IMG/VR virus record: IMGVR_UViG_3300020709_000001
Coordinates: 1-57,964 of that record
Origin: a virus
Lineage: Duplodnaviria > Caudoviricetes
Direction: 5' to 3' (one strand)
DNA: 57,964 bases
Below the pieces are notes generated by a model. The model searched no databases, had not been told where the DNA came from, and saw only the letters and a list, made by a program, of their open reading frames with translations. Made by a program: the position numbers and the translations under genes. This document shows positions 45,002 to 48,660 of this stretch, in pieces. Position 1 is the first letter of the stretch. The number at the start of each line of letters is the position of its first letter.

Positions 45002-46027
45002 TTAATTAAATGCACAGCATGAATAATAACAAGCTATGTTACCGCCGGTAGGTGTCGGACCATAGTTACCGCATGCGCCTGAAACGGCATTCGGTGGAAT
45101 GCAAGGAGTTGGGCCACATACGCCTGGCTGAGGATTAGTAGAATTGTTCTTACCAAATAAGTAATTTGATATAGAGCATACTGCTTTTGATGCGCCTGTG
45201 CCAATTGCTTTTCCAAGAGCTGTACAACTGATACCAGCTGCTAATGCTCCCATACCCGCAATTTGTTGTAATGGGGATGCTGCATAAGCACCAGGAATTG
45301 GGCCTGTATATGATGATGCAGATGATGTAGGCATTGTATAACCACGTAACAATGCCGACTCATTGGTTAGTTGCTGTAATGGAAATAATTGTTGATTCTG
45401 TGCAATGGTTTGTTGTTGAGCGCCTAATGTAGAAAGCGCATTCACGCAACCAATACCTAAATTCTGCTGTGTTGTAGCCAAGTTTTCAAGTGTATTAGCA
45501 GCTGCTAGCTTATTGGCTTGGCATTGCTGTAATGCTTGCTCTTGTAACTGTGTAATTCCTAAGTCTGCATTAGATAAATTTTGTGCTAATGCACCAGCAC
45601 CTCTAGTCGATCCAAACTGTCCGGCGCCAACTATGCCTGCAGTTGTCTGTGGTGCCAAGTTCATAGCAATATTAGACTGACCATAATTACCAACAGCACA
45701 TGCTAAATTGGTTCCTTTAACTTGATTAGCAGCACAAATTGCAGAATTTAATGTGGGTTGATAATTGCCTGCATTCTTAGCAACTTGGCAAAATGCTTGT
45801 TGCTGCAATGGCTGAGCACCAACGTACTGAGCATTTTGAGCAGCTTGCTGACCTTGACTTGCTAAATTACTTAAATAGCAAGTATAAAACTGAGGAGCAG
45901 CTGTTGCTGATGTCTGCGTAGTCGTAATATTAGGAAGGGCAGCCCCTTGAGTAAATGTGCCTCCTTGTGGTGATCCTGCAGTTACGCCAATACAAGGAAC
46001 TGCAGGTGATGCTGATGGTAGTGCCAT
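45002..46027 (-). CDS. Gln/Ala-rich DNA-ejection (pilot-like) protein, Cys-rich
   Basis: GAGQFGSTRG, SPLQQIAG motifs; 15 Cys and 1 Asp in 341 aa. Confidence 0.7.
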   Translation of the reverse strand: MALPSASPAVPCIGVTAGSPQGGTFTQGAALPNITTTQTSATAAPQFYTCYLSNLASQGQQAAQNAQYVGAQPLQQQAFCQVAKNAGNYQPTLNSAICAANQVKGTNLACAVGNYGQSNIAMNLAPQTTAGIVGAGQFGSTRGAGALAQNLSNADLGITQLQEQALQQCQANKLAAANTLENLATTQQNLGIGCVNALSTLGAQQQTIAQNQQLFPLQQLTNESALLRGYTMPTSSASSYTGPIPGAYAASPLQQIAGMGALAAGISCTALGKAIGTGASKAVCSISNYLFGKNNSTNPQPGVCGPTPCIPPNAVSGACGNYGPTPTGGNIACYYSCCAFN

Positions 46028-46029
46028 AA

Positions 46030-47244
46030 TTAACCTTTCGAATGCCGTTTAAGCGCTTCTTTCATATATGCCAGTGGTGATGCTTTTGGTGGTATTTTGT
46101 CAGAAGCTGCTGATCGTTTATGCTCACGTAAAGACTCTCTAAAATGGTCTAAAAGTTTGGCGCCAGCATCACTAGAACCGTTACCCAAAGCAGCAACAGT
46201 ATCGGCGTCAAAAACATACTCACCGTCAGCCAGCATAGCAGGGATATCGTCAGATTGTCCATCACCTTTGCCTTTTACATAATGCCCAGTGGCACCAGTA
46301 ATGAATTCTGGTACATGTTCTCTATGTTCACCATTCTCTTCATGCTGTGCGCCACCTGCTTTTTGTCCACTGAGTAATTTTAATCCGGAATTCATAAGCG
46401 CGCCAGATCTATTTCTTTGATTCTGATCTTGGAATCTTTGGAGAATGTCGGCCTGACTACCACCTTCTGCAGCTACTGGATAACCCGGTGAAGGGTTCGA
46501 TGTACCTAGACCGCCTAGCATTGTTTGATATAAAGCAGCATACGGATTAGGCTGTGCTGATGCACTCATAGCTTGAGTAGGCATACCAGTAGGATCGCCT
46601 ACTCGTAAGTTTGTAGCTGCTAATGTCTGAGGTGCAGTAGCTGATTGAGACTCAGGTGTTCCGTTTAAATTCTCTAACTGTGTCAATGGTTTAAGAATAT
46701 TTGCATTTGTGTTATAAACAGGAGCAGCTGCTAATCCGGCACTCTGTAATGGAGTAGGTAAAGCACCACCGCCACCTGAAGATCCACTTCCTGAAGATCC
46801 ACCAACCATGCTTGCACCTGATGAAGTCAGAGCACTTCCTACATTGGACTGTGCTTTTGCGCCTCTACTAGGTGCACAAGGTGAAAATAAGCCTGCAAGA
46901 ACTTGTTTGCCTAGCGTTGTAGCAGCAGTTGTACCTGCAGCTTTTAATGCAGCTTGTGCAGCAGCACATGTTCCACTGGCATTATATGGTCCACAATAAG
47001 GAGCACTATAACAGTGAACAGGAGCAGGCTGACATGTAGGAGGTGTAGGTGTGCATGTAGGAGGTTCAGGTGCACAAGGTACTGCACCACAACCTGGAGT
47101 ACTTGTAGGCCCACAACTAGGCCCACAGAAAGGATTTAAACAGCCAATACAACAAGGTAGTAAACAGCTAATACCTGGCATGCACACACCTACAACGCAA
47201 TCAACAATACAGCTAACAATAGGTACACAAACGACGCAACTCAT
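46030..47244 (-). CDS. Putative ejection protein with a Cys/Pro-rich N-terminus
   Basis: 19 Cys in the first 123 aa and none after; C-terminal G.GDGQSDDIPAMLADGEYV domain. Confidence 0.7.
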   Translation of the reverse strand: MSCVVCVPIVSCIVDCVVGVCMPGISCLLPCCIGCLNPFCGPSCGPTSTPGCGAVPCAPEPPTCTPTPPTCQPAPVHCYSAPYCGPYNASGTCAAAQAALKAAGTTAATTLGKQVLAGLFSPCAPSRGAKAQSNVGSALTSSGASMVGGSSGSGSSGGGGALPTPLQSAGLAAAPVYNTNANILKPLTQLENLNGTPESQSATAPQTLAATNLRVGDPTGMPTQAMSASAQPNPYAALYQTMLGGLGTSNPSPGYPVAAEGGSQADILQRFQDQNQRNRSGALMNSGLKLLSGQKAGGAQHEENGEHREHVPEFITGATGHYVKGKGDGQSDDIPAMLADGEYVFDADTVAALGNGSSDAGAKLLDHFRESLREHKRSAASDKIPPKASPLAYMKEALKRHSKG

Positions 47245-47247
47245 AAT

Positions 47248-47706
47248 TTACTCCGTAATAAGATATGTTGTTTCAAAAAGACTTGCGCCTATTCTTTCCA
47301 ATATCGGACTAAAGTCCATAAATGGTTTTACATGTAAAAATATTCTAGAAGGTTTTCTCTTCTTAATTTCTTCTACAGACCATTTAATAAACTTCATTCC
47401 TAATATGCCTTTTCTATAATCAGATCTTAAAAATAAAGCATTTGAATTTGCAACAAGAGTGTCAGAAAATTGCATTGGCTTATTAATAATCCATGTACTA
47501 TAACCAATCATTTTGCCGTCATCTCTCACTGTATGTATTTCCAAAATATCTTTATCATATAACTGACTATATGCTTTTAAATTTAATTTTAACTGCATCA
47601 CTTCTTTTTGCGTTACTAGTTCTTCATAATGCTGAAGAATTAACTCATTTGCTTCTTGTTCCCATATGCTAAATGTTTCAACTTGTTCTTTCTGAAATGT
47701 AATCAT
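47248..47706 (-). CDS. GNAT-like acyltransferase
   Basis: VRDDGKMIGY...LFL..DYRKG..G.K.IK. Confidence 0.75.
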   Translation of the reverse strand: MITFQKEQVETFSIWEQEANELILQHYEELVTQKEVMQLKLNLKAYSQLYDKDILEIHTVRDDGKMIGYSTWIINKPMQFSDTLVANSNALFLRSDYRKGILGMKFIKWSVEEIKKRKPSRIFLHVKPFMDFSPILERIGASLFETTYLITE

Positions 47707-48179
47707 TTTCCTAATATTTGTGCATGTACTTTACCATCAGGCTCCCCAGTCCAATTTAACACTACTGAATCAGGCTCTTTTTCTTTCCAATGCTCAAAAC
47801 TTAAAAATGCACCGCCTTCTTTAAATGTTCTAACAGAATGTAGCATACCATCAGGTGCATCGGCAGACTTACCTAATAGCATATGTGCCCCGTTCTCTTT
47901 AGCTTTTTGAAATTCAGACAAATCAGGAAATGTTCCATCTTCTAGTCCAAATTCTAGATTGCCGCCTAAATAAATAAAAGTAGAATCTACTCCTGGGTGA
48001 GAATGAAATGGAGCAGTACTATTAGGTTTAAGTATGTACAGCTCAATTTGAAATGCATCTTCTCTATATAAACAAAGAGAATAAGCTAAATCTGTAATAA
48101 ATGATGCTTGATCAAACGGAGGACGTAATGGTCGACTCTTTAACCACCATTGTTTAAATTCAGTAACATTAGACCACAT
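47703..48179 (-). CDS. Cupin metalloenzyme, paralogue 1
   Basis: ELYILKPNSTAPFHSHPGVDSTFIYLGG...MLHSV. Confidence 0.8.
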   Translation of the reverse strand: MWSNVTEFKQWWLKSRPLRPPFDQASFITDLAYSLCLYREDAFQIELYILKPNSTAPFHSHPGVDSTFIYLGGNLEFGLEDGTFPDLSEFQKAKENGAHMLLGKSADAPDGMLHSVRTFKEGGAFLSFEHWKEKEPDSVVLNWTGEPDGKVHAQILGK

Positions 48180-48660
48180 GATTAACCTCTATTGTTTTTG
48201 CATGCATTGGTCCTACATATTCACCTTCCCAGTGCGTAGTTACTGATGATGGATTGTCTTTTAACCAATGCTCAAAAATTAAAAATGAGCCGCCTCTTGA
48301 TCCAGTTTTCAATGCATGAGGTGTTCCATTGTTCTTATCAGCAGTCTTTCCTAATAGCATATGCGACCTATCTTGTTTCGGGTATTGATATGCGGATAAA
48401 TCAGCAAAATTACCTTGGCTGTCTGAAAAAGATAAGTCACCTGTTAAATACATAGATATTGATTCTACATTTGGATGACTGTGCATTGGAGACTCAGTAT
48501 TAGGTTTACATACATATAGCTCTACTTGATATTGTCCTTCTCTGTATAAGCACAAAGAATATGCAATGTCAGTTGTATGAATACAATTCTTAAATGGAGG
48601 ACGAAACGGTCTTCCTGACTTAATCCACCAATCTTTAAATTGTTCTACAGTTTTAGCCAT
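48169..48660 (-). CDS. Cupin metalloenzyme, paralogue 2
   Basis: ELYVCKPNTESPMHSHPNVESISMYLTG...PHAL; colinear with paralogue 1. Confidence 0.8.
   Translation of the reverse strand: MAKTVEQFKDWWIKSGRPFRPPFKNCIHTTDIAYSLCLYREGQYQVELYVCKPNTESPMHSHPNVESISMYLTGDLSFSDSQGNFADLSAYQYPKQDRSHMLLGKTADKNNGTPHALKTGSRGGSFLIFEHWLKDNPSSVTTHWEGEYVGPMHAKTIEVNHVV

Follow-up and report, generated by a model that had tools for sequence, protein, structure and literature searches.

Putative ejection proteins with cysteine at conserved aspartate positions in a 58-kb phage and its relatives, and an oxygenase-partner gene pair associated with the cysteine state

The closest described counterparts of the locus treated here are the modules of the Caulobacter phage GB2A type (gp065c-gp062c; PHROG 4287), in which a virion protein and small proteins are followed by a 'tape-measure-like' protein, here termed B, a protein termed A, and two larger proteins, one of them lytic. 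The same order is found in IMG/VR record IMGVR_UViG_3300020709_000001 (Duplodnaviria; Caudoviricetes), a complete virus record with direct terminal repeats that represents a 58-kb phage; the whole stretch of 57,964 nucleotides (nt) was analysed and is called the window. All four module proteins of GB2A are devoid of cysteine (Cys), whereas A and B of the window (A341 and B404) are rich in Cys and poor in aspartate (Asp). Two enzyme groups bear on this difference. The first is the TIGR02466/PF13759 family of phages, algal viruses and bacteria, to which a window protein is related by its PF13759 and PHROG 81 matches; neither a link to Cys-recoded ejection proteins nor a dedicated partner of 78 amino acids (aa) was found for this family in the literature searched. 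The second consists of CDO, ADO and the plant cysteine oxidases (PCO; PF07847), which share a small barrel of the cupin type, with its HxHP motif and distal His, with two paralogous proteins encoded in the same operon as A341 and B404.

A341 carries 15 Cys, 1 Asp and 3 glutamate (Glu) residues in 341 aa. In B404, residues 1-123 hold 19 Cys, 1 Asp and 1 Glu, and there is no Cys beyond them. The two proteins that follow in the operon, of 572 and 402 aa, have no Cys and contain 33 and 21 Asp, respectively. These counts exactly reproduce those of an earlier note on this DNA. Such Cys contents are far above chance: Cys makes up 1.0% of the predicted window proteome, and 161 of the 180 unique members of the A family are Cys-free. 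The note had also described the Cys residues as mostly isolated, which is true of the A341 core but not of the B404 N-terminus, where CxxC, CxxxC and CC spacings are many. Homologues of B404 range from 0 to 83 Cys; those of the 572-aa protein have 0-2, even in phages whose B has 83.

Which residues stand at the Cys positions in relatives? The A family comprises 2874 matches at E ≤ 0.001 among 8000 candidates scored, and 180 unique members were aligned to the family profile, 161 without Cys and 17 with at least five. In only three columns (50, 169 and 194) do half or more of the Cys-free sequences have Asp (151, 122 and 155 of the 161, respectively), and all three are Cys in the window protein. 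The Asp background in the family core is 2.0%. The Cys-free A proteins are almost uncharged, with three conserved Asp. The chance that nine core Cys would hit all three Asp columns among ~260 is p ~3e-5, by our own arithmetic and assuming random placement. Elsewhere, column 110, a Cys in the window, is Asp in 61 and Gln in 51 of the Cys-free homologues, and column 98, also Cys, is Asn in 114 of them; just one of the 12 conserved-Asn columns of the family is Cys in the window. A separate MAFFT alignment of 60 members gave the same consensus Asp positions. The expectation that the Cys columns would prove acidic in homologues is thus strongly upheld at columns 50, 169 and 194.

Changes in composition point in the same direction. 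As Cys rises by 2.8 percentage points in the A core, Asp is the most-reduced residue (-1.4 points), and it is again the most reduced in the A tail (-5.4 points, with Cys up 13.0). The N-terminal region of B averages 12.5% Cys and 2.9% Asp in 19 Cys-rich variants, and 0% Cys and 5.1% Asp in 47 Cys-free ones. One class of Cys-free B N-termini has Asp at a three-to-four-residue period where the window clade has Cys, although these regions are not rigorously alignable. The alignments and compositions together demonstrate, at the level of sequence, a residue-specific Asp-to-Cys recoding of these putative ejection proteins, and the low-complexity ends of both A and B have, on the same comparisons, become Cys-rich.

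How often has this happened? In a quick IQ-TREE tree of the conserved virion protein p585 (71 rows, 26 of them Cys-rich), seven changes of the Cys-rich label are needed and at least six are forced by supported branches. By this topology, the phage group has undergone six or more gains or losses of the Cys state. The window clade is nested among Cys-free phages, and the A proteins of loci L071 and L048 are 75% and 69% identical to A341. A second Cys-rich clade, here the L130 type, lies nearest to the Cys-free L128, L134 and L139. Intermediate A variants also exist (P0049 and P0062), with 8-10 Cys and with Asp retained at columns 50 and 194. In record G025 (L204, positions 6883-8549), A has 278 aa and no Cys but B has 12 Cys, and two cupins, a GNAT gene and the oxygenase pair described below are present; A and B can therefore switch state separately. 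A DNA pattern specific to the Cys codons matched only close relatives of the window clade and of the L130 type; two new viral loci that it revealed, L156 and L157, end a short way upstream of the gene, so that they are uninformative on cupins.

A further Cys-rich phage is MW202545.1 (L187), a deposited complete circular genome in which A (14997-16235) has 33 Cys and B (13074-14993) has 36. Its A protein ends in a string of ~30 residues that are almost all Cys and Ser, and is annotated as 'coronavirus S2 glycoprotein', probably owing to this tail.

The identification of A341 and B404 as ejection proteins is indirect. A341 itself has no PHROG match. The A-family profile aligns with GB2A gp064c (hhalign 99%, E 5.9e-18), which in turn matches PHROG 4287, 'DNA ejection protein' (E 1.6e-9), and the Cys-free C-terminal domain of B404 matches a motif of 'tape measure' PHROGs. 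GB2A and MW202545.1 have the same four-gene block, ending, according to the deposited annotations, in a 'lytic tail protein' or an 'SLT domain' protein. An ejection-module reading of both proteins is reasonable on these matches, and A341 and B404 probably enter the host with the phage DNA. The AF2 model of A341 is helical and of low confidence (pLDDT 55.7). No match to the operon DNA, to cupin 2 or to an A homologue lacking Cys was found in the phage collections searched; cultured relatives were found with p585 alone.

The late operon is on the minus strand and tightly packed, in the order p218, p406, p585, p80, p120, cupin 1, cupin 2, GNAT-like gene, B404, A341 and the genes of the 572-aa and 402-aa proteins. 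The products of p218, p406 and p585 are virion or tail proteins (PHROG 2941, 12796 and 3287). Features are listed in Table 1.

Table 1. Positions in the window of the module genes, the cupin-GNAT genes and the oxygenase-partner pair
Feature	Position	Strand	Remarks
Fourth ejection-module protein, 402 aa, 0 Cys	42056-43264	minus	
Third ejection-module protein, 572 aa, 0 Cys	43273-44991	minus	Weak VanY-like peptidase signal
A341	45002-46027	minus	341 aa; putative ejection-protein family member in the 'cysteine state'; Cys-rich C-terminal tail
B404	46030-47244	minus	404 aa; Cys-rich N-terminal region and conserved Cys-free C-terminal domain common to 'tape-measure'-annotated proteins
GNAT-like acetyltransferase	47248-47706	minus	PHROG 1249 acetyltransferase, E 1.2e-8
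Cupin 2, downstream paralogue, HSHPGVDS type	47703-48179	minus	AF2 pLDDT 95.3; generic cupin fold
Cupin 1, upstream paralogue, HSHPNVES type	48169-48660	minus	PCO_ADO E 0.027, Pirin E 0.013
p120, small conserved protein	48660-49022	minus	Precedes B or the cupin cassette in most relatives
78-aa oxygenase partner	54971-55207	minus	No known family matched; overlaps the oxygenase gene by 4 nt
TIGR02466/PF13759 '2OG-Fe(II) oxygenase'-type protein	55204-55836	minus	PF13759 E 3.3e-8; PHROG 81

Of interest among the remaining genes is the oxygenase-type gene with its 78-aa partner. It was traced from a weak Cupin_2 signal in two Cys-bearing records to a PF13759/TIGR02466 protein. The window protein scores 34.3 bits with PF13759, above the cut-off of 27, and 43.9 bits (E 2.4e-11) with TIGR02466, below the cut-off of 62.5; it is therefore a family member at the Pfam level only. 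The gene is also present in MW202545.1 and absent from four near-complete Cys-free relatives. In a survey of 92 records, with counts taken from those at least 40% complete and the window genome, the oxygenase was found in 10 of 11 Cys-bearing and in 1 of 26 Cys-free records; it was found in none of 12 cupin-only phages. Of the p585-tree rows of known status (n = 36), 12 have both traits and 22 neither, with one discordant row of each kind. An unbiased all-against-all clustering of 16 genomes gave the oxygenase and its partner (72-92 aa) as the top families enriched in Cys-rich genomes. The raw association of the Cys state with the pair is thus clear, and the pair tracks the Cys state better than the cupins do.

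Gene order adds to this. In three lineages the pair lies directly upstream of the B-A genes, with p120, the cupins and GNAT between where these are present: G022 and G025 have the contiguous order oxygenase, partner, p120, cupin 1, cupin 2, GNAT, B, A, and L239 has oxygenase, partner, B (21 Cys), A (9 Cys, 2 Asp). The sole Cys-free record of this survey with the pair is G011 (L210). Two genes upstream of its oxygenase pair, G011 encodes a glycine-rich, fibre-like open reading frame of 414 aa with 15 Cys, no Asp and no Glu (11648-12892). The window region just upstream of the pair (56140-57857, minus strand) encodes a tail fibre that includes the intramolecular chaperone domain Peptidase_S74 (E 1.8e-13) and, after it, a DUF7936 protein. 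A radical SAM gene (PF04055) was also considered as a companion of the Cys-rich proteins, and the idea was dropped: none was found in five Cys-rich genomes, the window included, with the control positive in 14 of 14.

What might the Cys residues do? The account to which we incline, tentatively and at somewhat less than even confidence, is a composite one: ejection proteins in the Cys state, with Cys doing the job of Asp by oxidative thiol or metal chemistry, and with the oxygenase pair taking part. The Cys would take over the role of the conserved Asp, which is probably that of an inter-subunit or cation-bridged latch holding the ejection proteins together in the capsid. They may act through oxidative thiol chemistry, be it disulfide, metal-thiolate or S-oxygenation, and the oxygenase cassette would help to set up this chemistry in the reducing cytoplasm.

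A number of observations weigh against the composite account. The Cys gain in B (+12.5 points) is far above the Asp loss (-2.2 points), so that replacement of Asp by Cys is only part of the change. Independent contrasts provide five pairs, of which about four go in the same direction (sign test, p ~0.125), and after phylogenetic correction the association of the oxygenase pair with the Cys state is only suggestive. One Cys-bearing record, G039 (44% complete), has no oxygenase. G012, G013, G014 and W01 carry the cassette at a great distance from B-A, amid genes of the replication type. IMG/VR contains at least 593 relatives of the partner, with a PF13759-type gene adjoining it in 52 of the 72 loci with upstream room, and a Cys-rich open reading frame (at least 150 aa and at least 4% Cys) occurs within 10 kb in only 8 of 80 partner loci. 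Moreover, the B-like proteins that accompany the cassette are Cys-free in six loci or more. Widespread, with few Cys-rich reading frames nearby and with these Cys-free pairings, the cassette is therefore not specific to this job. As to the literature and structures, no PF13759 member with a characterised function was found in the PDB, which has only the 'uncharacterized protein' entries 3bvc and 2rg4, and no substrate of PF13759 was found in the papers retrieved. PMC10598087 terms the TIGR02466-type protein a hypothetical protein, and the mention in PMC9769972 is one in the reference list. A link of this family to Cys-recoded ejection proteins or to the 78-aa partner was not found in literature judged mainly from titles and abstracts.

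An enrichment of Cys-rich reading frames around the partner in other phages was looked for and rejected, as the 8 of 80 loci compare with 1 of 73 and 6 of 42 in control sets. Near the cassette in two unrelated phages there are repeat proteins with 13-14 Cys and few Asp (L262, 7827-8750; L294, 1194-2147), made of ~40-residue units that end in a conserved NKYTY-type motif.

Could the Cys be purely structural? Disulfides or metal-thiolate clusters would then form spontaneously after lysis, or via host factors, in place of cation-bridged Asp; no phage enzyme would be involved, and the oxygenase association would reflect shared ancestry or module linkage. We hold this to be unlikely, though of real weight. 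CC, CxC, CxxC and CxxxC spacings dominate the N-terminal region of B, and the tails reach poly-Cys strings, a pattern like that of metallothioneins and keratin-associated proteins. The abundance of the cassette in phages without nearby Cys-rich proteins, its frequent distance from B-A and the non-significance of the phylogenetic contrasts also favour a structural role. It is less easily reconciled with the strength of the raw association in the 36 rows, which extends across mosaic lineages, with the contiguity of cassette and B-A in three lineages, or with the unbiased genome comparison, which singles out only the oxygenase-partner pair.

A more specific form of the composite account is that Cys at the Asp sites is converted after translation to an oxidised, possibly acidic (sulfinate) form by the O2-dependent oxygenase and its partner, aided in some lineages by the tandem cupins, so that the charge or cross-linking of the injected proteins would be under enzymatic control and O2-dependent. 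This is improbable. If true, enzymatic Cys conversion would constitute a residue-level recoding together with a maturation system without a described counterpart.

The earlier note had given the central role to the cupins. Its report of a GNAT gene and two paralogous cupins in the operon is confirmed, the cupins being 50% identical, and the motif HSHP-x3-S-x6-G with a distal His is present in both. The pair stems from an ancient duplication, the upstream copies forming one clade (support 91) in the cupin tree; at E ≤ 0.001, the family comprises 655 representative clusters. As proposed in the note, the cupins would be 3-His thiol dioxygenases of the CDO/ADO/PCO kind that turn the encoded Cys in A341 and B404 into the Asp isostere cysteine sulfinate. 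The presence of Cys at conserved Asp columns fits this proposal. Among Pfam families, PCO_ADO (PF07847) also matches the phage cupins most often (24 of 111 members at E ≤ 0.01, best E 2e-6), PF05995 being absent from the Pfam matches; seven of the ten PDB sequence matches listed are PCO or ADO, though at E 0.4-2.5; and one neighbouring Atlas cluster has PCO_ADO on 19% of its members. Finally, tandem cupins with GNAT occur at four placements on the tree of this phage group, all of them Cys-rich, including L014, which is nested in a clade otherwise without cupins.

The details of the cupins themselves speak against thiol dioxygenase activity. The PCO_ADO scores of the two window proteins (20.5 bits for cupin 2 and 14.3 for cupin 1) are below the curated cut-off of 27. 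At E ≤ 0.001 the AF2 model of cupin 2 matches 429 PDB entries. Those listed are without exception cupins, with B. subtilis CDO at rank 28 (TM 0.48) and human ADO at rank 29 (TM 0.48 and 0.33), behind generic cupins, KdgF, lyxose isomerase and quercetinase. The structural comparison suggested in the note thus led to generic cupins rather than thiol dioxygenases, which the phage proteins resemble no more than dozens of unrelated cupins do, and the fold search was set aside as a family discriminator, as it does not distinguish among cupin families. The phage cupins are ~160 aa long, and PCO and ADO chains 240-270 aa. Three His are nearly invariant in the family (H59, H61 and H114 in 111, 111 and 110 of 111 members), and the Ser that the note took for the site of the canonical Glu is retained in 62 of 111. 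The canonical carboxylate position is the one just before this Ser, four after the second His; it is acidic (Asp or Glu) in 104 of 111 members, whereas PCO5 has Thr there in the alignment. In acireductone dioxygenase and oxalate decarboxylase the ligands are spaced in this way (HxH-x3-E). A 3-His metal site in the phage cupins is accordingly doubtful. ADO and PCO are not known to act on any but N-terminal Cys, a further point against the cupins as sulfinate-forming enzymes.

The distribution of the cupins is equally at odds with this role. Cupins are lacking in 16 of the 26 Cys-rich rows of the p585 tree, in all 18 Cys-rich loci of the L130 type and in five records of that type. The complete genome MW202545.1, Cys-rich as it is, has neither a cupin-family member nor a Cupin_2 match, in a search that recovered both cupins from the window genome as a positive control. 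A 180-aa open reading frame of MW202545.1 with a PHSH motif was considered as a cupin and rejected (hhalign probability 0.14% to the family, no Pfam match). Conversely, the complete record G002 has both cupins, no A family member and no large Cys-rich reading frame, and L048-L051 have one cupin and GNAT with 0 Cys. Among Cys-free loci found through the A family, the L048 type is the only one with a cupin (one, with GNAT) within 8 kb. An independent-pairs test of cupins against Cys state has three pairs and p ~0.5. The co-occurrence anticipated in the note therefore stands in part: in this group, tandem cupins with GNAT are confined to Cys-rich backgrounds, but Cys-rich proteins occur without cupins and cupins without Cys-rich proteins. 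Cys-rich variants are independent of the cupins in the L130 type and in MW202545.1, an outcome that the note itself had held to speak against its proposal. The cupin distribution does not follow the supposed Cys-rich substrates, and we regard sulfinate formation by the cupins as quite improbable. As judged from gene content, the recoding is clearly independent of the cupins. The cupins and GNAT do not create the Cys state; they are a mobile accessory cassette with which this group can dispense, and any action of theirs on A or B seems rather unlikely, if far from negligible.

What else might the cupins and GNAT do? They may form a mobile cassette for tailoring a nucleic acid, a glycan or a small molecule, one that has no connection with the Cys proteins and sits at an insertion hot spot between p120 and B; this is quite possible, though short of probable. 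Fusions of the cupin domain in other family members (P0184, P0206, P0236, P0259, P0240) involve glycosyl-, methyl- and acyltransferase-like partners: DUF6445, a family-2 glycosyltransferase, Methyltransf_24 in two cases, and one Mom-like domain. Most cupin loci are in unrelated contexts, the pair being found in early-gene regions and, in unrelated phages, beside genes of terminase-portal size. Inserts of other kinds occur in the p585-to-B gap as well: it exceeds 900 bp in 11 of 48 Cys-free and 11 of 22 Cys-rich loci. Extra genes in this gap were considered as a trait of Cys-rich phages only, which the 11 gapped Cys-free loci contradict. The confinement of the tandem form to Cys-rich backgrounds in this group, at four placements, fits a tailoring role less well, and the window GNAT has no BLASTP similarity to the Mom-like fusion partner. 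The GNAT-like gene product has no Pfam or NCBIfam match, and in syntenic loci the cupins are always present alongside its gene. The tailoring role concerns the cupins only; it is compatible with the composite account as well as with purely structural Cys.

One further insert is a beta-ketoacyl-synthase-like gene (PF02801 and PF00109), which in MW202545.1 occupies positions 11686-12630 between p585 and B, the insertion site of the cupin cassette. It is found in both Cys-rich and Cys-free phages (also in L173, L088, L090, L092, L095, L103 and L105), and was rejected as a Cys-specific enzyme because Cys-free phages have it too. In another phage type (L021, L023 and L031) it adjoins single cupins, an arrangement in keeping with a tailoring role of the latter.

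The proximity of acyl-transfer enzymes to B, GNAT in the window and the ketoacyl-synthase-like gene in MW202545.1, raises the question of whether the Cys are acylation sites, GNAT or the synthase-like enzyme of relatives S-acylating the Cys-rich segments for insertion into the host membrane. The Cys-rich N-terminus of B is hydrophobic, and poly-Cys strings resemble palmitoylated cysteine strings. Acylation is nevertheless very improbable: the synthase-like gene is equally present in the Cys-free L088, L090, L092, L095, L103 and L105, most Cys-rich lineages have neither enzyme, and L048 combines GNAT and one cupin with Cys-free proteins.

Few parts of short-tailed phages are as poorly understood as their ejection proteins. 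The repeated, independent replacement of Asp by Cys in several lineages constitutes a natural experiment on the role of the Asp, and the Cys state suggests that redox or metal chemistry takes place within the capsid or in the course of injection. The neighbouring cupins, though suggestive, are not the key gene, and the focus of bench work shifts from them. The association with the oxygenase offers a first testable substrate hypothesis for TIGR02466/PF13759, which is among the commonest 'auxiliary' oxygenase families of aquatic phages.

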